Notes: generated by a model from the letters alone, not told the origin. 64,000 nucleotides of DNA from an uncultured Collinsella sp. (GCA_938023085.1 CALHDP010000164.1:1725-65724); one strand, 5' to 3'. Counted from the stretch's first letter, positions 11,411-44,396 are shown. Numbers and translations are program-made.

Positions 11411-11840
11411 CGTCGGGTAATGCTGTCGGGGATATAAGCCTCGGTGGCTTTGTTTTTGCCGTTCGCCAAATGAGGGATGACAAACTCTTATCAATCAAGA
11501 TAATAATTTATTAAACGACGGCACACGACGCTGTCGTACGAATGTCAACGGTGTTCGCATGGTCGATGACCGTTGATATAGTTAACCTCAACTTGTAAAG
11601 GAGGGTGCGCACATGCCGCAGACGACATACATTCGCCGCGTTGCCGCGCGCGCCCTGTATATGGCTCGGAGTCGCATATGAGCGGGTATGTTCACGGCTC
11701 CGGGAGAGACGACGCACAACTAAATAATCGACCGCAAAGCAGGTTCCCCAAAATTCCGGGTTTAGGCGCGGCTGGGTTTTCGCCACCCACCGTGCAGCAA
11801 TACCGTAGCTATTCAATTTTGGTTCGAGAGGGGAACCGTC

Positions 11841-13124
11841 ATGGCTGAAGAATTTGATTTCCATCCGATGTGGGAGAGCCTCGGCATGAATCTTGCCGAC
11901 CACGATATGCTGCTGGGCGCCGTGGGCCAGATGTACGGCGATATGTTCCTGACGCAGAACAATCGCCCCAAGTCCACGTCCTACCTGGACTTTGTGGCCA
12001 CCAACATCCACAGCGGCCGTATAAAGGAGATGCTCGACAAGAAGGAAGCCGGCGAGGCCACCAAGATCGTCGGTTCGTTCTGCGTCTATGTGCCCGAGGA
12101 GATTGTGCTCGCCTGCGACGGTATCCCCGTTGGTCTGTGCTCTGGTGCCGATTGGGCAACCGATAAGGTCGAGGAGCACCTGCCGCGCAACACCTGTCCG
12201 CTTATTAAGAGCTTTGCCGGCTTTAAGCTGGGCGAGGTCTGCCCCTACATCGAGTCGAGCGACCTGGTGGTAGGCGAGAACACCTGCGATGGCAAGAAGA
12301 AAGCCTACGAGTTCTTTGCAACGCAAAAGAACATGTACGTCATGGATATTCCCAACGTACACGACGAGTCGACGCTCGTGACCTGGAAGGCCGAGGTCAA
12401 GAAGCTCGCCGCCAAGATCGAGGACGAGTGCGACGTCAAGATTACGCCTGAGCGTCTGAAGGCCGCCATCCACGCCGTCAATGAGAAGCGTCGCGCCCTG
12501 CAGCGCCTCGCTGCCACGCGCGCTGCCGACCCGGCGCCCATCAGCGGTCTCGACAGCCTGCTGACCGTTCAGGCCGCCTTTATGGACGACACGCTGCGTC
12601 TGACCGGAGCCATTAACGATATGGCGGCTGAGTGCGAGCAGCGTGTCGAGGCCGGCGAGGGCGTGGCGCCCAAGGGGACCAAGCGCATCCTGTACACCGG
12701 TACGCCCATGGCCGTGCCCAACTGGAAGCTGTTCAACCTCATCGAGAAGGCCGGCGGCGTTGTGGTGGGCGAGGAGTCCTGCACGGGTTCGCGCTATTAC
12801 AAGGACTTGGTCGATGAGTCCGGTGAGACGGTTGCCGAGATGCTCGACGCCATCGCCGAGCGCTACTTTAAGATCAACTGCGCCGTCTTTACGCCCAACG
12901 ACCAGCGTATGAAGGACATTGTCCAGATGGCCAAGGACCTGCATGCCGACGGTATCGTCGACGTGGCCCTGCAGTTCTGCACGCTCTACGAGATGGAGTC
13001 GTTTGCCGTGGAGAAGGCCGCCGAAGAGGCCGGCATTCCGTTTATGCACATCACGACCGACTACGCCGGCGAGGATGCAGGCCAACTGCAAACCAGGATT
13101 GAGGCTTTCTTGGAAACCATTTAG
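11841..13124 (+). CDS. 2-hydroxyacyl-CoA dehydratase (HgdB)-family / double-cubane-cluster anaerobic reductase, paralog 1
   Basis: FCVYVPEE, GLC, NTCPLIKS, ENTCDGKKK, ESCTG, INCAVFTPN, QFC, GQLQTRIEAFLE. Confidence 0.85.
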   Translation: MAEEFDFHPMWESLGMNLADHDMLLGAVGQMYGDMFLTQNNRPKSTSYLDFVATNIHSGRIKEMLDKKEAGEATKIVGSFCVYVPEEIVLACDGIPVGLCSGADWATDKVEEHLPRNTCPLIKSFAGFKLGEVCPYIESSDLVVGENTCDGKKKAYEFFATQKNMYVMDIPNVHDESTLVTWKAEVKKLAAKIEDECDVKITPERLKAAIHAVNEKRRALQRLAATRAADPAPISGLDSLLTVQAAFMDDTLRLTGAINDMAAECEQRVEAGEGVAPKGTKRILYTGTPMAVPNWKLFNLIEKAGGVVVGEESCTGSRYYKDLVDESGETVAEMLDAIAERYFKINCAVFTPNDQRMKDIVQMAKDLHADGIVDVALQFCTLYEMESFAVEKAAEEAGIPFMHITTDYAGEDAGQLQTRIEAFLETI

Positions 13125-13139
13125 GACTATTCGTCCCGG

Positions 13140-13240
13140 CGGCTCCCCAGGCACCCGATCTTGCCGTTCAAACCGTCGCCTGCGAATCAAAGTACGCGGC
13201 GCTCCTCTTTCACGGCAACCTCGGGCACCTGGGAAAGCCG
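13140..13240. repeat. ~100-bp structured palindromic element, family B, copy 1
   Basis: Nested inverted repeats around core TCAAACCGTCGC...AAAGTACGC.GCGCTCCTCTTT, homologous to 14436-14544. Confidence 0.8.
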
Positions 13241-13277
13241 TTTCCTTGGTTGATTAAAAGGTTTGTTAAGGAGTTAT

Positions 13278-14441
13278 ATGTCGGAAAATATTGAGCAGCC
13301 GTTGCCGTCCACGTTTGAGGAGTTCAACGAGCAACGCAAGGCGGCGTTTATTCGCGTCAAGGATTACAAACAGGCCGGCAATCGCCTGGTCGGCTTTTTG
13401 TGCAGCTATACGCCGCTCGAGATTATCGATGCCGCGGGGGCTGCGAGCGTGGCGCTGTGCGGTACGTCCGATGAGGTGATTCCCGAGGCCGAGAAGGTGC
13501 TGCCGGCAAATCTTTGTCCGCTCATCAAGTCGACGTACGGTTTTGCCTATTCGCAAAAGTGCCCGTTTACGTACTTTAGCGACATGATCATCGGCGAGAC
13601 CACCTGTGACGGCAAGAAGAAGATGTACGAGCTACTCAACGAGCTCAAGCGTACGCACATTCTGCATCTTCCGCAGGGCCGCGACCGCGCCTACGAGCGC
13701 GAGGGCTGGTACGAGGAGTGCCGCCTGCTCAAGGAGGAGCTCGAGGGCTTCTACGGCATCACGATTACCGACGATGACCTGCGCGCTGCCGTCCGTCGTC
13801 GCAACCGCTTGCGTGCGGCCCAGCTCGAGATGTTTGCGCTGCAGGCCAACCAGCCGGCGGCCATGAGCGGCGTCGACCTGATGAGCACCATGTTTGCCGG
13901 TACGTTTAGTTTTGATATCGAGGCCTATACGCAGCAGCTGGAGCAAAAGGTTGCCAAGCTGCGCGAGGCCTACGACGCGGGCGAGCGCCCGGTTGCGGCG
14001 GATGCCAAGCGCATTCTGATCACCGGCTGCCCGGTGGGCGGTGTGATCAACAAGATCGGTCGCACCATCGAGTCCAACGGCGGCGTGGTCGTTTGCATGG
14101 ACGACTGCTCGGGCGAGCGTACGGCGGCCATGATGATCGACCCGGAGGCTCCCGACATCCTGCGCGCCATCGCCGACCGCTACCTGGATATCAACTGCTC
14201 GGTCATGACGCCCAACGACGGTCGTATGGACAACACCCTGGCCATGTGCGAGAAATACCACGTCGACGGTGTGGTGGAGAATGTGCTCCAGGCGTGCCAC
14301 ACCTTTAACGTGGAGAGTGCGCGCATGCAGGAGGCTGTCGAGGGTGCGGGTATTCCGTGCATGAAGATCGAGACCGATTACAGCAACGGCGACATGGGCC
14401 AGATCGAGACCAGCATCGCCGCCTTCATCGAAACCCTCTAG
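13278..14441 (+). CDS. Double-cubane-cluster anaerobic reductase (HgdB family), paralog 2
   Basis: LCSYTPLE, ALCG, NLCPLIKS, ETTCDGKKK, DDCSG, INCSVMTPN, QACHTF; AAGGAG RBS. Confidence 0.85.
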   Translation: MSENIEQPLPSTFEEFNEQRKAAFIRVKDYKQAGNRLVGFLCSYTPLEIIDAAGAASVALCGTSDEVIPEAEKVLPANLCPLIKSTYGFAYSQKCPFTYFSDMIIGETTCDGKKKMYELLNELKRTHILHLPQGRDRAYEREGWYEECRLLKEELEGFYGITITDDDLRAAVRRRNRLRAAQLEMFALQANQPAAMSGVDLMSTMFAGTFSFDIEAYTQQLEQKVAKLREAYDAGERPVAADAKRILITGCPVGGVINKIGRTIESNGGVVVCMDDCSGERTAAMMIDPEAPDILRAIADRYLDINCSVMTPNDGRMDNTLAMCEKYHVDGVVENVLQACHTFNVESARMQEAVEGAGIPCMKIETDYSNGDMGQIETSIAAFIETL

Positions 14442-14544
14442 CTTCCTCAGGCGCCGGATCTTGCTCCTCAAACCGTCGCTTGCGTACCCAAAGTACGCTG
14501 CGCTCCTCTTTCGGGGCAATCTCCGGCACCTGAGAAACCTAGAG
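14436..14544. repeat. Structured palindromic element, family B, copy 2
   Basis: Same core as 13140-13240 with compensatory stem changes. Confidence 0.8.
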
Positions 14545-14596
14545 CTAAGGCGCCTGAACGCGCCGCTACCTTTGATGTTTAGATTGGAAGAGAGCC

Positions 14597-15361
14597 ATGA
14601 TAGGGATCGGGATCGATATCGGGTCTACGGCGGCTAAGGCTGCTGTGGTCGACGGGGAGGGTTCGGTGGCGTGGACGTGCGTGCAGCCAACCGGGTTCTC
14701 CTCGGTCGATGCTTCCGAGCGGCTGCGCGAGGCACTGGTAGCGGCCGGCTATGACGTGACGGCCGAAGATGCTCGCGTGGTCGCGACTGGCTACGGCCGT
14801 GTTGCCGTGCCCTATGCGCACAAGGTCGTGACCGAGATCACCTGCCACGGCACCGGTGCCGTGCGTCTGTTTGGTGACCATGGCACCGTGATCGATGTGG
14901 GTGGTCAGGACACCAAGGTCATCCAGCTTAAAGGCGGCCGCGTGGCCAAATTTGCCATGAACGACAAGTGCGCCGCCGGCACGGGGCGCTTTTTGGAGAT
15001 CATGGCCGACCGCCTGGGCATTACCCAGCAGCAGATGGCAGACCTCGCCCGCACCGGCGAGCCTACCAAGATTTCCAGCATGTGCACGGTGTTTGCCGAA
15101 AGCGAGGTCATCAGCCTGATCGGTCGCGGCGAGCCGCGCGAGAACATTGCGCGTGGCGTGATCGACAGCGTGGTCTCGCGCGTGGCGACCATGGCCGGGC
15201 AGGCCGCGGGCGCTCCATACTACCTGACCGGTGGCCTGTGCGAGAATGCCTTCGTGGTGGAGCGGTTGGGCGAGCTACTGGGGTCGCCGGTGACCACCTC
15301 GCCCCAGGCTCGCTTTGCCGGTGCCATCGGCGCGGCGATTCGCGCCGCCGCCTTGGCCTAG
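14597..15361 (+). CDS. ATP-dependent [4Fe-4S] activase (HgdC/BadF ASKHA family; DCCP reductase-like)
   Basis: GIDIGST, ATGYGR, TEITCH, IDVGGQDTK, MNDKCAAGTGRFLE, SSMCTVFAESE. Confidence 0.92.
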   Translation: MIGIGIDIGSTAAKAAVVDGEGSVAWTCVQPTGFSSVDASERLREALVAAGYDVTAEDARVVATGYGRVAVPYAHKVVTEITCHGTGAVRLFGDHGTVIDVGGQDTKVIQLKGGRVAKFAMNDKCAAGTGRFLEIMADRLGITQQQMADLARTGEPTKISSMCTVFAESEVISLIGRGEPRENIARGVIDSVVSRVATMAGQAAGAPYYLTGGLCENAFVVERLGELLGSPVTTSPQARFAGAIGAAIRAAALA

Positions 15362-15375
15362 GGGTGTACCGCGAC

Positions 15376-16605
15376 ATGCGCATCCTCAATATCTCGGCAC
15401 AAAAACCAGATAGCACCGGCAGCGGCACCTACCTTGCCGCGCTCGTGCGCGAACAGATCGAGACGGGGCATCGCGCCGCCGTGCTTTGCGGCGCGGCTCC
15501 GGGTGATACCCAAGGCGAGCTGGACCGACGTGCTGCCGTGTTTGCCGTACCGTTCGAGTCGCCCGAGCTGCCGTTTCCCATCTGCGGTATGTCCGATGTC
15601 ATGCCCTATCCCTCTACACGCTATCGTGATCTGACGCCTTCGATGCTCAAGGCATTTGAGCGGGCATTTGCTGCTGCAATCGATCGGGCGGTGGCTGAGT
15701 TTCGGCCCGATCTGGTGCTCTGCCATCACCTGTATCTGGTGACCGCATTGGCGCGCGAGTGTGTCCGGGGCGTGCCGGTTGTTGCCGTGTGCCATTCGAC
15801 CGACCTGCGCCAGCTGCGTTCGCATGCGCTCGAGCGCGATCGCATCGTAAGTGCGGTTCGTCGGCTCGATGCCGTCTTTGCGCTCCATGCTGAGCAGGCT
15901 GAGCAGATTAGCCTGGTGTGCGGCGTCGATACCGATCGCATCCACGTGATTGGGACGGGCTACGACCATCGCGTCTTCTGTCGCGACGCAAGCGTGGCGA
16001 GGCAGCCGGGATCGCTTGTGTACGTGGGCAAGATTTGCTTTAAAAAGGGCGTCGAGTCGCTGGTTCGAGCCGTGTCATTGCCGATTGACGATGGCGTCCG
16101 CCCATCTGGCTTGGTACTTGTGGGCGGCCGCGGGGACGATGCCGAGTACGCGCGTATCGAGCGCTTGACCGCGGCCTCGGATGTGCCGGTGACGCTGGCG
16201 GGGCGCCTGGATAGCGATGAGCTCGTGCGTGCCTACCGCAGTTCCGACGTTTTTGTGCTGCCTTCGTTTTACGAGGGTCTGCCGCTCGTGACGATTGAGG
16301 CCCTCGCGTGCGGCTGCAAAGTTGTGGCGACCGATTTGCCCGGCGTTCGTCCCTGGATGGAGGCGATGCTTCCCGGTGCTCCCGTGACGTGGGTGGCGTC
16401 GCCGCGTATGACGGATGTCGACACGCCCGTGGCGGCCGACCTTCCGTTGTTTGAGCGCGCACTGGCAGATGCTATCGCGCAGGCGCTTGCGGCTCCGCCT
16501 TCGACGTTCGAGCCGTCGGCGGTCTCTTGGGAAGCGTGCCTGGCGCGTATACTTAAAGTCGTTGATTTGTTGGAAGGGAGGTTCGTATGGCTAAGGACAC
16601 CATGA
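15376..16605 (+). CDS. Glycosyltransferase family 4 (GT-B)
   Basis: YVGKI..KKG and DVFVLPSFYEGLPLVTIEALACG (EX7E motif); N-terminus MRILNISAQKPDSTGSG. Confidence 0.88.
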   Translation: MRILNISAQKPDSTGSGTYLAALVREQIETGHRAAVLCGAAPGDTQGELDRRAAVFAVPFESPELPFPICGMSDVMPYPSTRYRDLTPSMLKAFERAFAAAIDRAVAEFRPDLVLCHHLYLVTALARECVRGVPVVAVCHSTDLRQLRSHALERDRIVSAVRRLDAVFALHAEQAEQISLVCGVDTDRIHVIGTGYDHRVFCRDASVARQPGSLVYVGKICFKKGVESLVRAVSLPIDDGVRPSGLVLVGGRGDDAEYARIERLTAASDVPVTLAGRLDSDELVRAYRSSDVFVLPSFYEGLPLVTIEALACGCKVVATDLPGVRPWMEAMLPGAPVTWVASPRMTDVDTPVAADLPLFERALADAIAQALAAPPSTFEPSAVSWEACLARILKVVDLLEGRFVWLRTP

Positions 16606-17636
16606 GGCTCACGTCTATGACGGCCGCGAGCGGTTGAGCCGCTAAGTTGGCTCCCGGAGCCCTCGCCCAGGTCCTGGGCGATTTACCCAATGTGCATAAC
16701 GACAACTTGCTCGTGGGGTTCGATACCTCCGACGATGCGAGCGTCTTTCGCGTTGGCGATAACTTGGGTCTCGTGCAGTCCATCGTCTTCTTCCCGCCGA
16801 TGGTCGACGACCCGTTTCTATTTGGCCAGATTGCCGCGGCCAACTCGCTGTCGGACATCTACGCCATGGGCGGGCGGCCGAGCCATGCCATGAACCTGCT
16901 GTGCATTCCCAGTTGCCTGGGAGTTGAGGTTGCCGGCGAAATTCTGGCGGGCGGCGCCGACAAGTGCGTCGAGGCGGGTTGCTCCATCGCGGGCGGCCAC
17001 ACCATCAACGACGACGAGCCCAAGTACGGTCTGTCTGTGAGCGGTTTTGTGCCACTAGACCGTATGCTCGCCAACAGCGGCGCTCGCGTGGGCGATGCGT
17101 TGCTGCTGACCAAGGCGATCGGCTCGGGCATCATCACCACGGCCATTAAGGGCGATCTCATCGAGCAGGGCGAGGCTGGTCCGATGTTTGACTCGATGCG
17201 CTCCCTCAACGAAGCGCCGATTCGTCTGGCCGAGGGACTTGAGCTTCACGGCTGCACCGATGTCACGGGCTTTGGTCTGATCGGGCACGCGTGCGAGATG
17301 GCCGAGGGCTCGGGCGTGCAGGTTGAGCTTGCGTCGGGGGCGGTGCCGCTCTTTGATCAAGTGCTCGACATGGCGCGTCTGGGCATTATCCCCGCGGGCT
17401 CCTACCGCAACCAGGACTTCTTTGGCCCGCGCGTGGCTGCCGACGAGGATCTGGAGCCGGGCATGCTGGATGCGCTGTACGATCCGCAGACGTCTGGTGG
17501 CCTACTCATCGCGGCACCTGCTGCCGATGTTGATGAGCTTGCGTGCCGTCTACATGCTGAAGGACGTATCGCCGCCGTCGTCGGTCGCGTGTGCGTGCCG
17601 GTGCCAGGTGGTCCTGCCGTTCGCGTTGTCCGTTAA
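16587..17636 (+). CDS. selD: Selenophosphate synthetase (selenide, water dikinase); selenoprotein with Sec17 at UGA 16635-16637
   Basis: GGAGG RBS, ATG 16587, in frame SG-TGA-AAK (G-U-x-x-K) joining the ORF with DDASV, AANSLSDIYAMGG, GGHT, TDVTGFGL, DPQTSGGLL. Confidence 0.95.
16663..16681 (+). promoter_or_regulatory. Putative SECIS hairpin of selD
   Basis: TCGCCCAG-GTC-CTGGGCGA perfect 8-bp stem starting 26 nt after the UGA, GGUC at the apex. Confidence 0.65.
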
Positions 17637-17693
17637 CGACACGTTTATTGAGCTCTGTACCGTTCTAAACCGATTTATTCGAAAGGAAAAACT

Positions 17694-18320
17694 ATGTCTA
17701 CCAAAATTGAAGTCAATGCCATGGGCGATGCCTGCCCGCTGCCCGTCGTCAAGACGCTTAAGGCACTCAAACAGCTTAATGGCGAGGGCGCCGTGGTGAC
17801 CTCGGTCGACAACGAGACCGCCGTCAAGAACATCTCCAAGATGGCACAGGAAAAGGGCTGCACGGCCTCGGTCGAGAAGGTTTCTGACGCCGAGTGGCAC
17901 GTGACCTTGGCGACCTCTGGCGCCGTTGCCGTTGCGGACCCCGAGCAGGATGGCGCTGCCTTCTGTGATGCCAGCGCCGGCAAGGGCAAGCTCGTCATTT
18001 CCGTCTACACCGATTGCATGGGCCGTGGCGACGACGAGCTGGGCCACAAGCTCATGAAGGCCTTCATCTTTGCCGTGACGCAGCAGGAGGAGCTGCCCGC
18101 GACCATGCTGTTCTACAACGGCGGCGCCAAGCTCACCGTCGAGGGCTCTCCGGTGCTCGACGACCTGAAGGGCCTGGCCGAGCAGGGCGTCGAGATCCTC
18201 ACCTGCGGCACCTGCCTCGATCACTATGGCATTAAGGACCAGCTGGCGGTGGGCGAGGTCACCAACATGTACGTGATCGTGGAGAAGATGGAGCAGGCCG
18301 TGCGCGTTGTGCGCCCGTAG
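17694..18320 (+). CDS. yedF: Sulfurtransferase-like selenium metabolism protein (TusA/SirA + DsrE domains)
   Basis: GDACPLPVVKT, MGRGDDELG..LM, FYNGG, TCGTCLDHY, GEVTNMY. Confidence 0.88.
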   Translation: MSTKIEVNAMGDACPLPVVKTLKALKQLNGEGAVVTSVDNETAVKNISKMAQEKGCTASVEKVSDAEWHVTLATSGAVAVADPEQDGAAFCDASAGKGKLVISVYTDCMGRGDDELGHKLMKAFIFAVTQQEELPATMLFYNGGAKLTVEGSPVLDDLKGLAEQGVEILTCGTCLDHYGIKDQLAVGEVTNMYVIVEKMEQAVRVVRP

Positions 18321-18339
18321 CGTATTGGTTGGAGTTGCC

Positions 18340-18591
18340 ATGAGGGAGAAGCGCCCGGCGCTTGTCATCACGTTTCCTACCACGGCGGCCGCCATGGGCT
18401 GCGAGTCCCTGTGCATCGAGCGCGGCCTTCCCGGGCGAACGATTCCCGTGCCCGGGGAGGTCGCTGCCGGCTGCGGTTTGGCATGGAAGGCACAGCCTTC
18501 GGATGAGGACCTGCTGCGCGGCGAGCTTGCCGCGGCGGGCGTTCCCACTGAGGGCTTTACGGTGATCGACATGTGGGAGGTCGTGCGATGA
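18340..18591 (+). CDS. DUF3343 family protein (selenium-cluster associated)
   Basis: ITFPTTAAAM..E, GRTIPVPGEVAAGCGLAW; ATGA overlap with next gene. Confidence 0.78.
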   Translation: MREKRPALVITFPTTAAAMGCESLCIERGLPGRTIPVPGEVAAGCGLAWKAQPSDEDLLRGELAAAGVPTEGFTVIDMWEVVR

Positions 18592-19727
18592 TCTACCTGG
18601 ATAACGCGGCGACGACTATGCATAAGCCGCAAACGGTCATCGATGCCGTGACCCAGGCGATGTGCTCGCTCGGCAATGCCGGACGCGGCGCGACGTCGGG
18701 TGCGCTCGATGCGGCGCGTACCATCCACGGCTGTCGCGCCAAGCTTGCGCGCTTGCTGGGCTGCCCGCGGGCCGATCATGTTTGTTTTACGCCCAACTCC
18801 ACCGCGGCGCTCAATACCGTCATCAATGGCGTGGTGCGCCCCGGCGACCGCGTGGTCACGACGGTGCTCGAGCACAACTCCGTGCTGCGTCCGCTCAACC
18901 GCCTGGCGGCAGAGCAGGGCGTGACCGTTGAGCATGCGGGCTGCGACGCGAACGGCGTGCTCGACTACGACGAGCTCGAGCGGTTGGTCGCGCCGGGTAC
19001 TCGTGCCGTGGTGGTGACGCACGCCTCCAATGTGACCGGCAACGCGGTTGACGTTTCGCGTGTGGCGGCCATGGCCCATGCTGCCGGCGCGCTTGTGATC
19101 GTTGACGCCTCTCAGTCTGCCGGCACGGCGCATATCGATATGCAGGCCATGGGGCTCGACGTGGTGTGCTTTACTGGCCACAAGGGGTTCATGGGTCCGC
19201 AGGGCACCGGCGGGCTGGCCGTGGCGGAGGGCATTGACGTGGCGCCGTGGGCCATGGGCGGCACGGGCGTGCACAGCTTCGATGCACTGCAGCCGCTTGA
19301 GTGGCCCACGCGCCTTGAGGCGGGCACGCTCAACGGTCACGGCATCGCGGGACTTTCCGCAGGTCTCGACTTTATCGAGGCGCAAGGCGGGGTCGAGGCG
19401 ATCGCGGCGCATGAGCGAGCACTGGCGGATCGCTTTCTCGCTGGCGTGCGCGAAATCCCGGAGATCAAGCTCTACGGTGCCTTTGACCAGCCGTCGCGCT
19501 CGGCGATCGTCTCACTCAACGTGGGTGATATCGACTCTGCCGAGATCTCGGACGCACTCATGCAAGGGTGGGGGATTGCGACGCGCCCCGGCGCCCATTG
19601 CGCCCCGCTCATGCACCGTGCGCTGGGGACCGAGCGTCAGGGCGTCGTCCGCTTCTCGTTTGGGTATTTCAACACGGACGAGGAAGTCGATACCGCGATT
19701 GACGCTTTGCGCGATTTAGCCTGCTAG
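18588..19727 (+). CDS. Class V PLP aminotransferase: cysteine desulfurase / selenocysteine lyase
   Basis: IYLDNAATT, EHNSV, HASNVTG, DASQSAG, FTGHKG, EAGT, RPGAHCAP, VRFSFG. Confidence 0.9.
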   Translation: MIYLDNAATTMHKPQTVIDAVTQAMCSLGNAGRGATSGALDAARTIHGCRAKLARLLGCPRADHVCFTPNSTAALNTVINGVVRPGDRVVTTVLEHNSVLRPLNRLAAEQGVTVEHAGCDANGVLDYDELERLVAPGTRAVVVTHASNVTGNAVDVSRVAAMAHAAGALVIVDASQSAGTAHIDMQAMGLDVVCFTGHKGFMGPQGTGGLAVAEGIDVAPWAMGGTGVHSFDALQPLEWPTRLEAGTLNGHGIAGLSAGLDFIEAQGGVEAIAAHERALADRFLAGVREIPEIKLYGAFDQPSRSAIVSLNVGDIDSAEISDALMQGWGIATRPGAHCAPLMHRALGTERQGVVRFSFGYFNTDEEVDTAIDALRDLAC

Positions 19728-19741
19728 AGCGTATATACTTG

Positions 19742-19775
19742 CGGGACGGGTCTTTTGCCCGTCCCGTTTTTGTTT
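19742..19775 (+). terminator. Intrinsic terminator closing the reductase-selD-desulfurase unit
   Basis: CGGGACGGG-tcttttg-CCCGTCCCG followed by TTTTTGTTT. Confidence 0.7.
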
Positions 19776-19794
19776 CGACCCGAAAGGTGTGCCT

Positions 19795-21788: not shown

Positions 21789-22244
21789 TTAGTGGCGACC
21801 GTGGTGGCGGAGCTTGTCGATAGTGGAGTCGGTGCTTCGGCTGCGGGCGTCGGCGGCGGTTTGGCGCTGGCGGCGGTAGTCGATCATGCCTTGGATGATG
21901 GGCTTGCCAAAGCTCACGACGTCGTCGTTATAGATGGCGGTTCGGGCTGCGAGGAGGCAGTCGGTAAAGTCCATATGGGTCTTGCCAAAGAGTTTGATGG
22001 CAAGGGCGATAACGGTGGGCTCGTCGACCATGACGTCATCGAGCAGCTTGGACATGGCCGTCGCAATCTCCACGCGCGGGACCTTGTAGACGTCGCGCAG
22101 CGTGACCACGACGCGCGTGATGATTTCGGGGTAGACACGAGCGGTGCGTGTGGCGATGACCTTGGCAGCGCGCGGCGACAGGACCTCGTCGTCGTTAAGC
22201 AGGTAGCGCAGGATGACGGTCTCGTCGATGATGGTGCTACTCAT
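21789..22244 (-). CDS. PIN-domain (VapC-like) toxin
   Basis: IIDETVILRYLLND and MDFTDCLLAA acidic PIN motifs; overlaps upstream antitoxin gene. Confidence 0.75.
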   Translation of the reverse strand: MSSTIIDETVILRYLLNDDEVLSPRAAKVIATRTARVYPEIITRVVVTLRDVYKVPRVEIATAMSKLLDDVMVDEPTVIALAIKLFGKTHMDFTDCLLAARTAIYNDDVVSFGKPIIQGMIDYRRQRQTAADARSRSTDSTIDKLRHHGRH

Positions 22245-22560
22245 GGATATCTACTTCCTCGGGACCCAAAACCGACTCGTCGCTTTCTGTGGCTAGGTAT
22301 TCAATCCAGGCATTGCGCTCCTTGGAGCGGCGATTGGGGTCCCCATATGCTTTGAGCAATCCATAGGCGGCGGTGCCGTCCTTTGAGCGCACGGCAACCG
22401 GTTGAAAGGGGAGCTTGCGCATCAAAATACTCTGCGCGACAAATAGACGGACAGCCTCGGCGAGCGATGTGCCCATAGCGTCGTAGAGACGCTCGGCATG
22501 CTGCTTGTCTTCCTCGCGAATGCGCACCTGCAGGATGGCTCGTTTTTGAGTCGATGACAT
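22237..22560 (-). CDS. RelB/DinJ-family antitoxin
   Basis: LQVRIREEDKQHAERLYDAMGTSLAEAVRLFVAQSILMRKLPF, RHH-type RelB pattern. Confidence 0.8.
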   Translation of the reverse strand: MSSTQKRAILQVRIREEDKQHAERLYDAMGTSLAEAVRLFVAQSILMRKLPFQPVAVRSKDGTAAYGLLKAYGDPNRRSKERNAWIEYLATESDESVLGPEEVDIHE

Positions 22561-22988
22561 CACTGGCCTCCCTTAATGAGCGTGCAATATGAATAGTCAA
22601 ATACAGCATTAGCTGATAATAACCAATCTTATAACCACTACTTTATTGCACTCAAGTTAATGAGCGCGAAATATATATCAAACGTATTACATCCTTTATA
22701 AACGAGCGTGAAATCTCCCTTGGATGTACGCATGTAATACACTCACCTTTATAGCTTCTAGAGAATAATTCCAACCTGCCAAAACCCCTGCAATACACCC
22801 GTATTGCAGGGCCTATGCTCAAGTTTGCCACCTGCAACTGCGTATATTTAACCTGTATATCGTTGGAGAAACTCTATCGAGTGCCTGTTTCGCCGCATGT
22901 ACTCGATACGTCGATGCCAGGCCACGGGCGGCTTGGGTCAATGTCGACAGGGTCTCTCCGGCATGGGATTCAGGAGGGAGTGAACAAC

Positions 22989-23507
22989 ATGGGCAATAAA
23001 CGAGTCGTAGCCGATTCCTCACGCTGCATTGGGTGCCAAACCTGTATGGCGGCGTGCATCGAGGCGCACGACATCCCCGGCAACATCGCCGCGCCGCGCC
23101 TGCGCGTGACGCGTACGTACGAGATCTCCGCACCGGTGGCTTGCCATCACTGCGAGGATGCCCCGTGCGCGAAGGCCTGTCCTACGGGCGCCTTGTTCTT
23201 TGATCCAAAGAACCATCGTATCGGCGTCAACGAGGACAACTGCATCGGCTGCAAGAGCTGCGTCATGGCATGCCCCTTTGGCGCCGTTAGCGTGGCGACC
23301 ACGCAGGTTCCGGTCTTGATGGGCGACGTTCGCGTGGGTTCGCAGACTAAGAGCTTCGTGCTCAAGTGCGACCTGTGCGTGGACCGTCCCGGCGGTCCGG
23401 CGTGTGCCGAGGCGTGCCCGACCAAGGGCCTCATCCTGGTTGACGAGGAGCGCCTGGCAGAACTGACTGCCGAGCGTGCCCGCGCCACCATCGAAAACGA
23501 GGCGTAA
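22989..23507 (+). CDS. hydN: 4Fe-4S electron-transfer protein (HydN/HycB-like)
   Basis: CIGCQTCMAAC, CHHCEDAPCAKACP, CIGCKSCVMACP, KCDLC..GPACAEACP. Confidence 0.85.
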   Translation: MGNKRVVADSSRCIGCQTCMAACIEAHDIPGNIAAPRLRVTRTYEISAPVACHHCEDAPCAKACPTGALFFDPKNHRIGVNEDNCIGCKSCVMACPFGAVSVATTQVPVLMGDVRVGSQTKSFVLKCDLCVDRPGGPACAEACPTKGLILVDEERLAELTAERARATIENEA

Positions 23508-23583
23508 GCGGGCGGCCATACAGGCCCAATGATTGTCAAATAAGTACCGATTAATCGGTAGCAGAGAAAGGAAGGAGGGTGTC

Positions 23584-25806
23584 ATGGAGAAGCATAAAGT
23601 GATCTGCCCGTACTGCGGCGCCGGTTGCCAGTTTAACCTCCTGGTCCAAAACGGCCAGGTCGTGGGCACCGAACCGCTCAACGGCATCACCAACCAGAGC
23701 GAGCTGTGCCTTAAGGGCATGAGCGGCTACGACTTCATCAACGACACCAAGATCTTGACTCCTCGCGTACTGCACCCGATGATCCGCCGCACTAAGGGCG
23801 CGGATCTTGAGCGCGTAAGCTGGGACGAGGCACTGAATTTCACCGCATCTAAGATGCAGGCCATAATTGACGAATATGGTCCTAACGCTGTCATGACCAC
23901 CGGCTCTTCGCGAGGCGGCGGCAATGAGGCGAACTACGTCATGCAGAAGTTTACGCGTGCGTGCATCGGCACCCACAGCGTGGACAACTGCGCCCGTACT
24001 TGACACGGCCCTACTGTCCTCGGTCTGATGGACACGGTTGGTTCAGGTTGCATGTCATGCTCCATCCCCGGTATGGAGGATGCGGGCTGCATTTTCCTCT
24101 TCGGCTATAACCCTGCCGATTCGCACCCCATCGTCGCAAGGCGTATCGTGCGAGCCAAAGAAAAGGGTTGCAAGATCATCGTCGCCGACCCGCGCCATAT
24201 CGAAACTGCGCGTATCGCCGATATCTACCTTCCGATCAAGAACGGTTGCAACGTTGCGTTCCTCAACGCCTTTGCCAACTGCTTGGTCAACGATGGCCTC
24301 TACGACAAGGAATTCGTCGCCGAGCACACGAACGGCTTTGACGAATGGTGGGAGACCATCAAGAACTACACTCCCGAATCCGTACAGGACATCACGGGTG
24401 TCGAGCCCGCGTTGATCCACCAAGCTGCCGAGATGTACGCCACGGCGAAGCCCTCTGCCATCATTGGCTGGGGTATGGGCGTATGCCAGCAGAAGCAGAA
24501 CCTGAAGACGGTGCACACCATCGCCTCCATCGCCTGCGTTGCCGGCCAGATCGGCAAACCCAACTCCGGCCTCGCGCCCGTGCGCGGTCAGAATAACGTC
24601 CAGGGCTCCTGCGATATGGGCATGCTGCCCAACCTGTACCCTGGCTACCAGAAAGTCACCGACCCCGCAGTGCGTGCCAAGTTTGCCAAAGCTTGGGGCG
24701 TGCCCGAGGAAAAGCTCCCGCTCGAGGAGGGCTACAAGCTCACCGATCTGGGCCACCTGGTCGACGAGGGCAAGGTGCACTGCTTCTACAACTACGGCGA
24801 GGACCCGGTGCAGACCGAGCCCGATTCGGCCGGTATGCGCAAGACGCTCTCCGAGCTGGATCTGTTCATTTGCCAGGACATCTTTATGACGCAGACGACC
24901 ATGCTCGCCGACGTCATCCTGCCCGCTACCTCTTGGGGCGAGCACGAGGGTGTCTTTACCGCATCCGACCGTAGCTTCCAGCACTTTGACGCGGCCGTTC
25001 CGCCCAAGGGCGAGTGCCGCCACGACTGGGAGATCTTCGCGGACCTGTCCACGCGCATGGGCTACCCCATGCACTACGACAACACCGAGCAGATCTGGAA
25101 CGAGTGCATTAGCCTGTGCCCCAACTTTGTGGGCGCGACCTACGAGAAGATGGCTCCCGAGGGCGGTTACGCCCAGTGGCCGGTCAAGAGCACCGATGTG
25201 AACGACCACGGTACGCCCGACATGTTCGCTGGTGGCAAGTTCACCACCAAGGACGGCCGCGCCAACCTGATGGCGCACGACTGGGAGGCGCCCTCCGAGC
25301 TTCCCGACGATGAGTACCCGCTCATTCTGTGCACCGTCCGCGAGGTCGGCCACTACAGCTGCCGTTCGATGACCGGCAACTGCAAGACGCTGGCGCTGCT
25401 TGCCGATGAGCCCGGTTTTGTCCGCATGAATCCCGCGGACGCCCAGGCGCGCGGCATCAAGAACGGCGACATCGTCTCGATTCACAGCCGCCGCGGTCAG
25501 GTATACAGCCGCGCCGACGTGAGCGACCGTATCAACAAGGGCACGGTCTATATGACCTACCAGTGGTGGATTGGCAAGTGCAACGAGCTGACCATGCACA
25601 AGGTCGACCCGGTCTCGCACACGCCCGAGGACAAGTTCTCCGCCTGCCAGGTCGACGCTATCGCCGACCAGGTCTGGGCCGAGGGCGAGGTCGAGCGTCA
25701 GTACACCGAGCTCAAGCAGGCTCTGGTGGATGCCGCCGCTCCCCAAGACGTTGAGCCCGGCGCCGCCAAGTTCGACGACGAGGCGCACGTGAACCAAATC
25801 GTGTAG
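23584..25806 (+). CDS. fdhF: Formate dehydrogenase H alpha subunit (Mo-bisPGD), selenoprotein with Sec140 at UGA 24001-24003; 740 aa
   Basis: Two in-frame ORFs joined at DNCART-TGA-HGP; CPYCGAGC..LCLKG, RGQNNVQG, LPATSWGEHEGVFT. Confidence 0.95.
24015..24034 (+). promoter_or_regulatory. Putative SECIS hairpin of fdhF
   Basis: TGTCC-TCGGTCTGAT-GGACA starting 11 nt after the UGA, same position and GGUCU apex as the E. coli fdhF SECIS. Confidence 0.7.
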
Positions 25807-25884
25807 TCCCGTTCTCGTTGGCTTTTTGGGCCGGGCGTCCCGTACGTTCGGGAGCCCGGCCCGTTATTTTGAAAGGAAGTGGGG

Positions 25885-26502
25885 ATGAACCGCTTCATCG
25901 ACATCAACCCGGAGAGGTGCATCGGCTGCGGAACATGCCAGTCCGCCTGTGCCGACGCCCACCGGATGCAGGGTCTTCAGGATACGCCGCGCCTGGCGCT
26001 CGTGAAGACCGGCGGTATTTCGGCCGCCCTTGCCTGCCACCATTGCGAGGGTGCCCCCTGCGCCGAGGTTTGCCCGGTGAATGCCATCGAGCACGATGGC
26101 GACCGCATCCACGTCAAGGAGCAGGAGTGCATCGGGTGCAGGCTGTGCGCCATCGCGTGCCCCTTCGGAGCCATCCATCCCGATGGCACGTCTATCGCCG
26201 GTGTCGCAGGCATGTGCGATCCGACGCCTTCGTATCCTAAGTCCCTGAGCAGCCTGCTTACGTGGGCTCCTGGCCAGTACACCTGCGCTGTCAAGTGCGA
26301 CCTGTGCGCCTTCGATCCAGACGGCCCGCATTGTGTGGCGGCGTGCCCCACCAAGGCGCTGACCGTCATGGGCGGCGCGGCCGATCGCGAGCTCGACGAG
26401 GCCAAGCGCCTGCGCTCGATCGAAAACGGTCCGGCCGTCGACGTTACCGCTGTGGCCCAGGGCCTGTCAGAGAAAGCAGAAGGGAGCGTAAACAATGGAT
26501 AG
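25885..26502 (+). CDS. hyfA: Hydrogenase-4 / FHL Fe-S subunit (HyfA/HycB)
   Basis: Four ferredoxin Cys clusters; MNRFI..PERCIGC start like HycB. Confidence 0.85.
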   Translation: MNRFIDINPERCIGCGTCQSACADAHRMQGLQDTPRLALVKTGGISAALACHHCEGAPCAEVCPVNAIEHDGDRIHVKEQECIGCRLCAIACPFGAIHPDGTSIAGVAGMCDPTPSYPKSLSSLLTWAPGQYTCAVKCDLCAFDPDGPHCVAACPTKALTVMGGAADRELDEAKRLRSIENGPAVDVTAVAQGLSEKAEGSVNNG

Positions 26503-28513: not shown

Positions 28514-28525
28514 GGAGGGGAGAGC

Positions 28526-29452: not shown

Positions 29453-29467
29453 GAGAAGGGAGAAACA

Positions 29468-30925: not shown

Positions 30926-30938
30926 GAGGTAGAACGAC

Positions 30939-40728: not shown

Positions 40729-42186
40729 ATGAGCGATAGCCAGAACATGTCCGATGAGGTGCGCGCCCGCCTGCGCGCCATTCCCTCCGTCAACGAGCTG
40801 CTCGCAGAGTGGCCGGTTGTGAAGGCGGCGAGGGAGACCTGCGACGCGGTGGTGCATGCCGCCGTCACGGCCGAGCTCGCCGAGCAGCGCGCCGCCATTC
40901 GTGCCGGTGCCGCCCCGCGTTCCAAGCGCGACCTGGCCTCGGCCATCGAGTGGCGTGCGCATCGCTCTGCGCTGCCGAGCCTGCGCCCAGCAGTTAATGC
41001 CACGGGCGTGGTCATCCATACCAACTTGGGCCGCGCCCCGCTCGCGGAGTCGGCGGCAAAGGCAGTGGCCGAGGTCGCGCGCGGGTACAGCACGCTCGAG
41101 TACTGCGTCGACACCTGCTCGCGTGGGTCGCGCAAGGAACATGCCGCGCAGCTGATCCGCTCGCTTACCGGTGCCGAGGACGCGCTGGTCGTTAACAACA
41201 ACGCCGCCGCTGTGCTGCTGGTGCTGGCGACCCATGCCGCAGGCAAAGAGGTCATCGTCAGCCGCGGCGAGCTTGTCGAGATCGGCGGCAGTTTCCGCAT
41301 CCCCGATGTCATGGCGGCCTCGGGCGCCAAACTCGTCGAGGTCGGCGCCACCAACCGCACGCACCTGGCTGATTATGAGCAAGCCATCACGCCCGATACG
41401 GCGATGATCCTTAAGGTCCATCCTTCCAACTATCGCATCGAGGGTTTTCACGAGGAGGTGGGTTCTCGGGAGCTTGCGGCGCTTGCTCACAAGCACGGCC
41501 TGCTGTTCTACGAGGACCAGGGCTCGGGCGCGCTATTGCCTGACGACATCCTGGTTCGTGGCGGCGAGGAAACCACGCCGGCTTCGGTTTCTGCAGGGCT
41601 CGATCTGGTGTCGTGCTCGGGCGATAAACTGCTCGGTGCCGCACAGGCGGGCATTATCATGGGCCGTCGCGATCTGGTCCAGGCCTGTGGGTCGCATCCG
41701 CTTATGCGCGCCCTGCGCCCGGGCAAGCTCGCACTGGCGGCGCTCGAGGCTACACTGCGCATCTACATGGATGGGGCGGATGTGGCCCATCGCGAGGTGC
41801 CGGTGCTCAACATGCTCACGCTTCCGCAGGCTCATCTGGAGCGTCGCGCACGCAAGCTGCGCGAGCTGATGGTGACGGGCCTCGATAAGGCGGGTTGCCC
41901 GTGCGCCGTGCAGGTGGAGATCGTCGAGGAGTCGTCGACTCCCGGCGGCGGCTCGCTGCCTACCGTCGAGCTGCCCACGATGTGCGTTGCCGTGCGTCTT
42001 GTTGACGCGCGCCTGACGGTCGATGCGCTCAAGCGCTCGCTTGTCCAGGACTTCGACACGCCGGTCGTCACGCGAACCTCGCACGATCGCATTTTGTTTG
42101 ACGTCCGTACGCTCGTGGGCGACCGCGATATCGAGACGGCGGCGTCGACGCTCGTCGCGTGCGTTGAGAGGGCGATTGCTCGATGA
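40729..42186 (+). CDS. selA: L-seryl-tRNA(Sec) selenium transferase
   Basis: NATGVVIHTNLGRA, VNNNAAAV, SRGELVEIGGSFRIPDVM, SGDKLLG. Confidence 0.96.
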   Translation: MSDSQNMSDEVRARLRAIPSVNELLAEWPVVKAARETCDAVVHAAVTAELAEQRAAIRAGAAPRSKRDLASAIEWRAHRSALPSLRPAVNATGVVIHTNLGRAPLAESAAKAVAEVARGYSTLEYCVDTCSRGSRKEHAAQLIRSLTGAEDALVVNNNAAAVLLVLATHAAGKEVIVSRGELVEIGGSFRIPDVMAASGAKLVEVGATNRTHLADYEQAITPDTAMILKVHPSNYRIEGFHEEVGSRELAALAHKHGLLFYEDQGSGALLPDDILVRGGEETTPASVSAGLDLVSCSGDKLLGAAQAGIIMGRRDLVQACGSHPLMRALRPGKLALAALEATLRIYMDGADVAHREVPVLNMLTLPQAHLERRARKLRELMVTGLDKAGCPCAVQVEIVEESSTPGGGSLPTVELPTMCVAVRLVDARLTVDALKRSLVQDFDTPVVTRTSHDRILFDVRTLVGDRDIETAASTLVACVERAIAR

Positions 42187-44150
42187 GTGAGGTTCAGGCG
42201 CTGGTGGAGTGCCCCGTTATCGTTGGCACGGCGGGTCACGTTGACCATGGTAAGTCGGCACTGATCGAGGCACTGACTGGCAAGAATCCCGATCGTCTGG
42301 AGGTTGAGCGCCGTCGCGGTATGACCGTGGAGCTGGGCTTTGGCGAGCTGGCGCTGCCGAGTGGCAAGATCGTTGGCCTGGTCGACGTGCCGGGCCACGC
42401 GCATTACTTGCGCGCCATGGTGCAGGGCGCCACGGGCATCGACGTGGCCGTGCTGGTGGTTTCGGCCGTCGAGGGCGTGATGCCGCAGACGCGCGAGCAC
42501 GTGCACGTGCTGGAGCTGCTGGGCGTCACGCATATGGTGGTCGCGCTGACGATGTGCGACCTGGCTGATGCCGAGATGACCGAGCTTGCCGAGCTTGATG
42601 TCGATGACTTTTTGTCGGGTACCGTGTTTGCAGGCGCGCCGATCGTGCCCGTGTCGTCCAAGACCGGCGAGGGGATTGATGCGCTGCTGGCAGCGCTCGA
42701 CGAGTGCGTGGACGCCTGTTGGGCTGCCTGTCGCGATCGCGCCGAGCGAACCGACGCTGCGCCGCGCCTGCCGATCGATCGCTGTTTTACGATCAAGGGT
42801 GCCGGCACCGTCGTGACGGGTACACTGCACGACGCGCCGGTTGCGGTGGGCGATGAGCTGGTCGCGCTGCCGTCGCGCACGGTCTGTCGCGTCCGCGGGA
42901 TTCAAGTGCATGGCGACACGCAGCAGGCGCTGCCCGGTCAGCGCGTGGCGCTCAATTTAGTGGGCGATGGTGTCGCCGCGCTCGATCGCGGTGAGATGCT
43001 GGGCGTGGCGGACCGCTTTGGTCAGACGTTGCGCTTTATGATGACGTTCACCTACCTGGGGCGCGAGGGCGCCAAGCCGCGCGTGCTCGAGTCGGGCGCG
43101 CGTGTGCATGTGATGGCCGGCACGGCCGAGGTCGTCGGCCGCATCATGCTTTTGGAGGGCGAGGCCCCCATGGCGGTGGGCGAGACCCGTACCGTGCAGG
43201 TGCGCCTGGATGATCCGCTGCCGCTGCGTGCCGGAGACCGTGCTGTGGTGCTGTCGTATTCGCCCGTTATGCTCATCGGCGGCGGGCGCGTGCTGCTATC
43301 GCGCTGCCGTCGCTCGCGCGAGCTTTCTGCCGGCGAGCGCGCACTGTTTGCGGCGCTTGAGTCCGGTGATATCGCGGGCGGTGTGGGCGCTTGGCTGGCG
43401 CTGCAGATGCTGCCGGTTACGGCGGTTGATGTCGCCGAGGCTTTGGATCTTGGTGTCGGCGAGGTCGATGCCGCGCTGCGCGGGTTGGTGGCGCAGGGCG
43501 CTGCTTGCGCGCTTGCAGGCTCGGATGGCTCGCTGTATGCAGATTCTTCTGCGCTCGACGCCGCGATGGATGCACTGGCGGCGACCCTGTCGGCCATGCA
43601 CACGGCGGCTCCCAAGGAGACGGGCTTTACGCCCGGCGCCGTTGCCCATGCTGCGTGGCCTGCCGTTGATGAAGGCGTTGCCGCGGCTCTGATTGCCGAG
43701 GGCTGCTCCCGTGGCGTGTGCGCCGCCGAGGGCGCCGAGGTATTCGACCCGCATTCGGCCGCCGCGGCGGCACGCGTGGTGCGAGAGGCTTGCGAGCGGA
43801 TCGTCGCGCTGCTTGACGAGGCCGGCCTGGATGCGCCAGCGCTTCCCGAGGTGGGCGAACAGCTGCAGCTTGGCCGCGACACTATGACGCGTGCCCTGCG
43901 CGAGCTTTCGCTCAACCGCTCGATCGTTAAGGTCGAGCGCGACGTTGCCCTGTCTGCTGCCGCCGAGGCCCATGCGCGTGAGCTTGTTGCCGCCGCCATT
44001 GAGGCAGCCGGCGGCGCTGCCACCACGAGCGTACTGCGCGAGGCCCTGGGTGTGTCGCGCAAACGCGCCATCAGCATCTTGGAGCACCTGGATGCCGTGC
44101 GCTTTACGGTGCTCGACAAGGACGCCGGCGGCCTGAGGTCCCTGCGCTAG
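42183..44150 (+). CDS. selB: Selenocysteine-specific translation elongation factor
   Basis: GTAGHVDHGKS, RGMTVELGF, DVPGH, IDRCFTIKGAGTVVTGT, C-terminal winged helix LGVSRKRAISILEHLD. Confidence 0.95.
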   Translation: MSEVQALVECPVIVGTAGHVDHGKSALIEALTGKNPDRLEVERRRGMTVELGFGELALPSGKIVGLVDVPGHAHYLRAMVQGATGIDVAVLVVSAVEGVMPQTREHVHVLELLGVTHMVVALTMCDLADAEMTELAELDVDDFLSGTVFAGAPIVPVSSKTGEGIDALLAALDECVDACWAACRDRAERTDAAPRLPIDRCFTIKGAGTVVTGTLHDAPVAVGDELVALPSRTVCRVRGIQVHGDTQQALPGQRVALNLVGDGVAALDRGEMLGVADRFGQTLRFMMTFTYLGREGAKPRVLESGARVHVMAGTAEVVGRIMLLEGEAPMAVGETRTVQVRLDDPLPLRAGDRAVVLSYSPVMLIGGGRVLLSRCRRSRELSAGERALFAALESGDIAGGVGAWLALQMLPVTAVDVAEALDLGVGEVDAALRGLVAQGAACALAGSDGSLYADSSALDAAMDALAATLSAMHTAAPKETGFTPGAVAHAAWPAVDEGVAAALIAEGCSRGVCAAEGAEVFDPHSAAAAARVVREACERIVALLDEAGLDAPALPEVGEQLQLGRDTMTRALRELSLNRSIVKVERDVALSAAAEAHARELVAAAIEAAGGAATTSVLREALGVSRKRAISILEHLDAVRFTVLDKDAGGLRSLR

Positions 44151-44175
44151 GCCGGTCACTCGCTCCCGCCTCCTC

Positions 44176-44242
44176 AGTTGCGGTGAAATAGTTCCTATTT
44201 GGAGGCTTTGGCAGCAAATACAGGAACTATTCCACCGCAACT
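44176..44242. repeat. 67-bp palindromic element, family A, copy 2
   Basis: AGTTGCGGTGAAATAGTTCCT...AGGAACTATTCCACCGCAACT. Confidence 0.85.
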
Positions 44243-44299
44243 TCTTGTTCGTCTTTTTGGGATGGAGCCGTTTCGGTTTGGTAAAATACCGCCGCACTT

Positions 44300-44396
44300 G
44301 GGAACGGATGGGCTCCGGTGGGCTCCGCGGTCCTCAAAACCGTTGCGAGGCGTGCAAAACGTCTTGGATGTGTTCGATTCACATACGTTCCCGCCA
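44300..44396 (+). tRNA. selC: tRNA-Sec(TCA)
   Basis: Long acceptor stem, 6-bp D stem with CGGT loop, TCA anticodon at 44334-44336, 8-bp variable arm, T arm ATGTG-TTCGATT-CACAT, G discriminator plus CCA; directly after selAB. Confidence 0.93.

Follow-up and report, generated by a model that had tools for sequence, protein, structure and literature searches.

A selD operon with two double-cubane cluster proteins in Collinsella: a candidate unit for selenium supply and activation

We examined an eight-gene cluster at positions 11841 to 19727 of a 64,000-nt stretch of DNA from an uncultured Collinsella sp. (GCA_938023085.1, CALHDP010000164.1:1725-65724; this whole stretch is the window, and positions are counted from its first nucleotide), which belongs to a Collinsella-type assembly of 2.15 Mb that is 89% complete. 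The cluster joins two double-cubane cluster proteins (DCCPs) and their ATPase activase to a family 4 glycosyltransferase (GT4), to selD, and to genes for YedF, a DUF3343 protein and a class V pyridoxal phosphate (PLP) enzyme. Because DCCP genes were almost never found without selD, and accompanied selenium use whatever the sink for selenium in the genome, we favor reading the cluster as an operon for selenium supply and activation in which the DCCPs would release selenide upstream of SelD, a reading in which our confidence and our doubt are about equal.

Judged by sequence, both reductases belong to the DCCPs and are not dehydratase subunits. DCCP_A (11841..13124, + strand, 427 aa) and DCCP_B (13278..14441, + strand, 387 aa) each scored 489 bits against model NF040772 (cut-off 350) and are 38% identical to one another. 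DCCP_A is of the long, N-terminally extended class I and aligned over its full length with PDB 6ENO/7YYL (E 2e-124); DCCP_B is of the short, YjiM-like class II without that extension. Seven cysteines in DCCP_A (81, 100, 119, 149, 314, 347, 380) and seven in DCCP_B (42, 61, 80, 110, 277, 307, 340) all aligned with 6ENO cysteines and were invariant in 35 aligned homologues; their spacings (18/18/29/164/32/32 and 18/18/29/166/29/32, respectively) differ from the printed pattern by 1-3 residues, and a cysteine pattern opening with a gap of 19 gave no match to DCCP_A. The activase (14597..15361, + strand; TIGR00241 233 bits, cut-off 125; PF01869) is an ASKHA [4Fe-4S] ATPase of the DCCP-R type with two ligand-type cysteines, Cys125 and Cys163; in this family it is the activase that feeds electrons to the double cubane. 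The NF040772 assignment, the seven aligned cysteines and the adjacent ASKHA activase are shared with Carboxydothermus DCCP/DCCP-R (6ENO, 7YYL) and E. coli YjiM/YjiL, whereas here both classes share a single activase and stand in an operon with selD, yedF, DUF3343 and lyase genes. Class I DCCPs are described as having narrow channels for small molecules and class II as having an open site (PMC7317905). The C. hydrogenoformans protein is reported to reduce acetylene, hydrazine and azide, and what DCCPs do in physiology is called unknown in the same paper (PMC9351452).

The remaining genes, apart from that of the GT4 (discussed below), would form a complete selenium relay. SelD converts selenide to selenophosphate, and the PLP lyase family moves selenium from selenocysteine (Sec) onto a catalytic cysteine. 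The selD gene (16587..17636, + strand; TIGR00476 329 bits, cut-off 125) contains one in-frame TGA, at codon 17 (16635-16637) within an SGUAAK motif (U17-A-A-K20), and the synthetase is itself a selenoprotein. YedF (17694..18320, + strand; TIGR03527 215 bits, cut-off 110) combines TusA and DsrE-like parts, and the DUF3343 (Se_S_carrier) protein (18340..18591, + strand, 83 aa; PF11823 68 bits) has an invariant Cys45. The class V enzyme (18588..19727, + strand), of the EF2568 family (TIGR01977 418 bits, cut-off 377), carries K199 and the group II RXGXHCA motif as RPGAHCA with C338; it scored 354 bits against the SclA model NF040779, under the cut-off of 525, and is a putative Sec lyase or cysteine desulfurase whose preference for Sec we infer from gene context only. 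Group II NifS-like enzymes are stated to form a Cys-perselenide (SclA preprint 10.1101/2020.02.07.939272). The same four families make up the selD-yedF(SirA-like)-DUF3343-Sec lyase neighborhood described earlier (PMC2432076; PMC5322559; E. faecalis SclA/EF2568). The gene identities proposed in an earlier reading of the window (hereafter the sequence-only reading) were borne out by the curated models.

The association of DCCPs with selD was assessed by surveying genomes. Among 201 Coriobacteriia genomes, 165 carried selD and 101 a DCCP, with both in 99; the two that had a DCCP and no detected selD are 86% complete. Within the order of Collinsella (97 genomes) selD was found in 51/51 DCCP carriers. 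For 151 Eggerthellaceae the counts were 91 with selD, 60 with a DCCP and 59 with both, so that only one of the 60 genomes without selD had a DCCP. When DCCP and selD genes lay on one contig (48 Eggerthellaceae), they were at most 10 kb apart in 39 and more than 50 kb apart in 5. The link between the reductases and selenium that the sequence-only reading drew is therefore upheld in both surveys (99/101 and 59/60 DCCP genomes with selD). The activase-GT4-selD order recurs in Collinsella, with selD at 79/80 GT4 loci and the activase at 79/80, these 80 loci having been picked by GT4 similarity, and the gene arrangement is far beyond chance. Relatives shuffle the gene order freely, often with selA and selB adjoining; selAB stood directly after brnQ in 3 of the 80 Collinsella loci. 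The idea that all eight genes are one system fares less well: the reductase-selD link is conserved, but not every cluster has the GT4, and the DCCP pair is often located away from selD.

Both the DCCP-selD link and the idea of a selenium-bridged cluster, and so the main hypothesis of the sequence-only reading, are already in print. Haft and Gwadz (bioRxiv 10.1101/2022.07.06.499078) report 955/970 high-scoring DCCPs in SelD genomes, and propose the processing of a selenium compound or, as a formal possibility that they rank lower, a selenium-bridged cluster. Near-obligate co-occurrence of DCCP and SelD is common to their data and ours; theirs is an association of genomes together with adjacency to the sao cassette, whereas here the DCCP genes are joined directly to selD. 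The nine-gene sao cassette of the SAO system is not at this locus, and the Sao models, which were run on the eight operon genes and not on the rest of the genome, matched none of them. Neither glycosyltransferase nor YedF appears as a word in the main text of that preprint. Parts of the cluster have been touched upon elsewhere: Collinsella aerofaciens is listed by Zhang 2008 with selD, sirA-like, yqeB and yqeC genes (PMC2432076); a STRING table in Lin 2015 gives dehydratase subunits, an activase and glycosyltransferase Shel_25140 as partners in Slackia (PMC5322559); and a 2025 preprint connects SelD and YqeBC with purine breakdown in the gut, for which a C. aerofaciens cluster is among the examples (10.1101/2025.04.24.650524).

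We examined if the DCCPs could be a separate destination for selenium. A single selD was found in the whole assembly, which also contains selA and, on contig C161, yqeB and yqeC, the known route to selenium-dependent molybdenum hydroxylases. The suggestion that the operon channels selenium to something beyond Sec-tRNA did not hold up, since this sole selD must serve FdhF and SelD, relatives have selAB next to the cluster, and the genome contains yqeBC. The distance of more than 20 kb to selA, selB and selC on which that suggestion leaned is real in this window and carries no meaning: because selAB adjoin the same genes in many relatives, it is uninformative on the destination of the selenium. 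A test for orphan selD genes used 24 genomes with a selD match showing no TGA, together with this genome. Of these 25, 21 had no selA, yqeB was present in all 21, and selU was in none of the 25; a DCCP was present in 9 of the 21, and in 5 of the 9 it lay 3-6 kb from yqeB. No genome was thus found where the DCCP as a separate sink would explain an orphan selD. The DCCP is found with whichever sink exists, which therefore fits a function in supply; a selenium-bearing cofactor is also compatible with it.

Under the supply reading the operon would be the cell's unit for acquiring and activating selenium, inside an island of molybdenum, formate hydrogenlyase and selenium genes. The PLP lyase would strip selenium from Sec onto its catalytic cysteine, YedF and DUF3343 would relay it on cysteines, and the DCCPs, driven by the activase, would use electrons of very low potential to free selenide from a refractory selenium compound; a small selenium compound may be the one used by class I DCCP_A, and one that is larger or bound to DUF3343 may fit the open site of class II DCCP_B. 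Selenophosphate from SelD would then feed Sec in FdhF and in SelD, plus the selenium-dependent molybdenum hydroxylases via YqeBC. The GT4 would be an optional selenium-linked accessory, using a nucleotide sugar to glycosylate a small acceptor for which selenophosphate and selenide are candidates.

Importers inside or beside DCCP clusters point to a supply role, to which a predicted docking of DCCP_B with the DUF3343 protein (detailed below) adds a weak lead. An ATP-binding cassette (ABC) of the Opp type was present in 20/80 Collinsella loci, lying between the DCCP pair where both members were seen, and importers in or beside DCCP clusters are likewise described for the SAO and Mlp clusters (10.1101/2022.07.06.499078; PMC10418091), the Mlp preprint placing DCCPs within clusters for methyl-selenium salvage (PMC10418091). 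One such locus has a five-gene Opp/Dpp-type importer between the DCCP genes (L003:4412-9689), absent in the window; the compound that it binds may be what the DCCPs act on. Metagenome locus L151 begins with a class II DCCP, an NMT1-type ABC, selD and GT4, and continues on the other strand with a PP2C-like gene, an activase and a class I DCCP, followed by yedE and DUF3343; after these stands a YjeF-C / carbohydrate-kinase-like gene (L151:16615-17475), which places a sugar-related gene within a selenium island.

Several observations weigh against the supply reading. No importer lies inside the operon in the window, and YedE was not found in this 89%-complete genome. The DCCP is dispensable, because 32/91 selD-bearing Eggerthellaceae are without one. 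Outside the order, where 34 of 50 DCCP genomes were examined up to about 9 kb on each side, environmental Coriobacteriia have DCCP_A and the activase amid housekeeping genes, with selD at 0/34 loci and a TusA-, DUF3343- or class V-type gene at only 5/34; a second, class II DCCP stood at 6/34, and several of these had ABC-type genes between the pair. Physical linkage of DCCP and selD is therefore bound to lineage, and the surveyed genomes are kin, so that the counts overstate independence. Finally, a DCCP needing selenophosphate for its own cofactor would give the same co-occurrence.

That last possibility, a selenium bridge, has been put as a formal one by Haft and Gwadz (10.1101/2022.07.06.499078). 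In the form considered here the DCCPs would consume selenophosphate: SelD, YedF, DUF3343 and the lyase would place a bridging selenium in the double cubane (8Fe-8S-1Se) of enzymes whose substrate for reduction is not a selenium compound. The near-absolute dependence on selD, kept even when the genes are far apart, speaks for it. So does, as much as for release of selenium, a predicted complex of DCCP_B with the DUF3343 protein (interface score ipSAE 0.58, vs 0.01 for the best of 3 controls; contact agreement at least 83%, partner predicted local distance difference test score (pLDDT) at least 87); the mark used for docking was reached by 116/157 solved pairs and 2/215 mismatches, and at 0.60 or below there were only 18 solved pairs together with both mismatches, and we treat this predicted docking as a weakly supported lead. 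Against a selenium bridge, no genome had a DCCP as its only candidate sink (yqeB accounting for all the selA-less selD genomes), the C. hydrogenoformans cluster is described as [4Fe4S]-u2S-[4Fe4S] (PMC9351452), and the authors who raised the idea ranked it below the processing of a selenium compound. We consider it unlikely, on balance, that this is what the operon does.

An equally doubtful proposal, and one compatible with the supply reading, is that the GT4 is a second, anaerobe-type Se-glycosyltransferase, making a selenosugar from a nucleotide sugar and selenophosphate or selenide; the selenosugar may be a store, a detoxified form or a carrier, and DCCPs may cleave it again for selenide. 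The GT4 gene (15376..16605, + strand) encodes a GT-B enzyme of an unnamed subfamily that fell below every curated cut-off. Its frame overlaps the start of selD by 19 nt (16587-16605), and here runs 4 residues beyond the common 405-aa form. The subfamily has the motifs QxPxxTGSG, GMSDxMPY, HHL, HGTDLRQ and GKxxxxKG and comprises 374 clusters at E up to 1e-30; among 255 full-length matches QxPxxTGSG was present in 247 and GMSDxMPY in 246. It is a distinct, bounded subfamily and is not SenB, which was called the only functionally identified Se-glycosyltransferase in 2024 (PMC10891094). Named members occur in Coriobacteriia, Clostridium sporogenes, C. drakei, C. botulinum, Tepidibacter, Romboutsia, Tissierella and Cloacimonetes, to which Atlas clusters added Thermodesulfobacteriota; the organisms with named members are probably for the most part selenium-using anaerobes. 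In the literature searched we found no paper on this GT4 and no report of a selenium association for the subfamily, which supplementary tables could mention.

What the GT4 shares with SenB (TIGR04348; PDB 8FBX, 8K5U; selenoneine and ovoselenol clusters) is the GT-B class and a gene that overlaps selD or lies next to it; unlike SenB, the GT4 fails the family model (22 bits vs cut-off 300), has no senA partner or other such downstream enzyme in the operon, carries the GMSDxMPY insertion and belongs to strict-anaerobe hosts. TIGR04348 at E 1e-40 gave no match in this genome, and SenB was found neither in five selD plasmid regions nor in two unannotated regions. SenB homologues scored 31-33 bits on the GT4 profile, under the ordinary GT4s of this genome (43-60); the profile-profile probability was 97.7% at 18% identity, consistent with distant homology. 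The selenophosphate pocket of SenB is given as H58, T83, T85, R155 and K158 (PMC10891094). Residues H118, H140/T142 and K219/K224 of the GT4 line up with the HARR, TGTD and R..K motifs of four SenB homologues, in favor of a selenosugar, but BshA shares HGTD, which makes the match unspecific; the GT4 has EGLPLV where SenB carries EGGAHV/EGGAN. The structure model (pLDDT 95.6) was nearest, among the 50 matches listed, to small-acceptor enzymes of the GlgM, BshA, MshA and sucrose-phosphate synthase (SPS) types (Z 32-34, root-mean-square deviation 3.1-4.0, about 350 residues), which would suit the proposal; SenB was not among the 50 entries listed in either fold search, and this is no evidence of a different fold. 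With GlgM, BshA, MshA, SPS and the Leishmania SPS-like protein the GT4 shares GSG, HGTD and EGLP-type motifs; it differs from them in being only 17-24% identical, with all curated models far under their cut-offs, and we know of none that is linked to selenium genes. The Leishmania protein (PDB 8VRF/8UAG/9DCM) aligns with the subfamily through the N-terminal insertion region, and no function is given for it in the abstracts found.

Neighboring genes also bear on the selenosugar proposal. In Eggerthellaceae the profile matched 73/151 genomes, from which we dropped 10 matches of a sister clade (E 1e-47 to 1e-55) that lacks GMSDxMPY, as seen in the one of ten inspected (L206), leaving 63 carriers. 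SelA was present in 61 of these and selD in 58, and 20 had no DCCP, so that the GT4 also stands beside selenium genes where the reductases are missing; the sister clade had selD in just 4/10 genomes (G330 being among those without). The GT4 gene was co-oriented between selD and selA at L010 and L011 and beside selD at L012 and L015, and family f3 has the order selD-GT4-selA-selB. Among 43 copies on the same contig, 17 were head-to-head with selA at less than 300 bp, although these 17 may be one inherited arrangement. Of 80 metagenome GT4 loci (765 kb in total), 10 had selD, selA, yedF or a DCCP, including the selD-GT4 pair of L151; the ten include two closely related pairs as well as one locus resembling Coriobacteriia. 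A PP2C-like phosphatase was the commonest GT4 neighbor, at 15/80 metagenome loci (e.g. L151:11232-12020), mostly convergent, and would suit a phosphorylated acceptor. Set against these are the 70/80 metagenome loci without a selenium gene (many of them short) and the Eggerthellaceae copies, of which 35/63 lay within 10 kb of selA or selD, 14 lay farther and 14 had neither on the contig; in addition G273 has an intact copy and neither selA nor selD was found there, the copy in G120 has one frameshift, and that in G094 is truncated. The selenosugar suggestion of the sequence-only reading thus gains circumstantial support from the neighbors of the GT4 and none from chemistry. The longer chain, in which a GT4 selenosugar pathway operates without SenB in strict anaerobes and DUF3343-docked DCCPs release selenium from the selenosugar or from imported organoselenium, is, taken whole, improbable in our judgment.

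Other GT4 contexts are recorded here as observations. In one sediment clade (12/80 loci; L137:8945-9931 and 11 related) a radical SAM gene stood just 5' of the GT4. Fusion proteins combine the GT4 with a GFO/IDH/MocA oxidoreductase, with DUF6873 (two cases) or with a gamma-glutamyl cyclotransferase-like domain (P0213, P0241, P0254, P0193). Activase-GT4 fusions (P0002-P0004, P0009, P0010, P0014) were considered as Rosetta-stone evidence and rejected, being single-record products of frameshift or deletion that break the activase. Three Eggerthellaceae genomes had selA and GT4 and no selD by model or protein search (G246:C1:1023558-1024955, G208:C317:6569-7969, G239:C64:5276-6673), one of them in 6 contigs and 97% complete; this may represent an assembly gap or an unusual source of selenophosphate. 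A 22-kb Terrisporobacter plasmid (L207, NZ_CP101638.1) carries selD, selA, selB, a selenium-associated LysR, a class V enzyme and proline reductase genes and is a mobile selenium cassette.

It could also be that DCCP and GT4 do anaerobic work unrelated to selenium, and travel with the selenium, molybdenum and formate island by selection in a shared niche. The GT4 is patchy (11/44 genus-level Collinsella genomes, many others having the operon without it; none in 104 sampled genomes outside the order, with a single-protein query at E 1e-25), and its GC content at third codon positions is 0.69 vs about 0.8. Close Collinsella copies had a ratio of nonsynonymous to synonymous diversity (pN/pS) of 0.18 vs 0.03-0.07 for their neighbors, that is, weaker constraint; the low synonymous diversity of the GT4 (pS 0.05 vs 0.18-0.28) was discarded as evidence, the loci having been picked by GT4 similarity and being biased. 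A scan of genome contigs gave only close Collinsella-type loci, and one of viral sequences gave a single locus. Outside Coriobacteriia the evidence comes from protein names, from metagenome contigs and from a single Acetoanaerobium record, in which selD and DCCP lie 275 and 360 kb from the GT4; this orphan context, those of many sediment contigs, and the unlinked DCCPs of environmental Coriobacteriia are what simple co-travel would give. However, the links appear again under several gene orders and among lineages that are only 35-55% identical, and selD-less genomes of the same anaerobic family seldom had a GT4 (5/60) and, as above, hardly ever a DCCP; we therefore think mere hitchhiking quite improbable.

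It is highly improbable that DCCP_A and DCCP_B are common subunits of a 2-hydroxyacyl-CoA dehydratase accompanied by its activator, a case that the sequence-only reading listed among its refuting outcomes: they share the Pfam family PF06050 and the activase, and class II DCCPs are thought capable of accepting CoA esters (PMC7317905), but both have the seven aligned cysteines and not the three-Cys set, and DCCP_A and DCCP_B scored only 102 and 86 bits against the HadC model (cut-off 700) and 83 and 78 bits against a benzoyl-CoA reductase-type model (BzdN or BcrB/C; cut-off 454).

The layout of the operon agrees in most points with what had been read from the window. All eight genes lie on the + strand between modC and brnQ, and the closing terminator was found as a terminator-like hairpin with T tail (about 19741..19777, + strand). 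The seven junctions measure 153, 155, 14, -19, 57, 19 and -4 nt in gene order, so that the description of short or overlapping junctions is right for the last five and wrong for the first two. Each of the two long junctions contains one copy of a palindromic repeat of about 100 nt (13131..13241 and 14441..14540, limits approximate), and one transcript across the first genes is therefore a candidate only. About 15 further copies occur elsewhere in the genome, on other contigs; the repeat folds as a long hairpin, resembles repetitive extragenic palindromic or miniature inverted-repeat transposable elements, and has no Rfam match. Two sigma70-like matches in the 430-nt gap after modC (11477..11582, + strand) are promoter candidates, found by consensus matching alone, which gave 7 matches in the region vs 4.2 expected; a terminator-like hairpin lies downstream of modC (11422-11448). 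There was no Rfam riboswitch in the window. Records from RNA runs were considered as proof of co-transcription or expression and set aside as uninformative, being contigs assembled from strains without the GT4.

The island around the operon contains moeA, moaB, modABC, a Sec fdhF, a hydrogenase-4-like block, selABC, mobA and a xanthine-dehydrogenase-family pair. The FdhF-type formate dehydrogenase (23533..25806, + strand), a known selenium sink, is interrupted by an in-frame TGA (Sec) at 24001-24003 and is followed by the hydrogenase-4-like block; together with hydN-type ferredoxins and a formate/nitrite transporter these form a formate hydrogenlyase-like block (22815-40676), in which a molybdopterin oxidoreductase at 38442-40676 is without assigned identity. 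The Sec machinery (40729..44396, + strand) has selA starting at 40729, selB at 42183 and tRNA-Sec at 44300; another DUF3343 protein (45199-45594), extended at its N terminus by a Cys-rich stretch, adjoins mobA and tRNA-Sec. After a tRNA-Pro/tRNA-Gly pair, RelB/DinJ-like and PIN-like genes (21789-22563, minus strand) have, by inspection, the look of a toxin-antitoxin pair.

This locus joins both DCCP classes, the activase and the whole predicted selenium relay in one operon of a gut bacterium that can be cultured. Because the GT4 and the ABC importer are each present in some natural variants and absent from others, the selenium hypotheses are testable by comparing strains and by reconstitution. 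If the GT4 were indeed a second family of Se-glycosyltransferases in anaerobes, this would give a new selenometabolite and bear on the competition of gut microbes for dietary selenium; and were the whole pathway true, it would provide, along with that metabolite, the first physiological reaction of a DCCP, in organisms including gut Coriobacteriia and Stickland clostridia.

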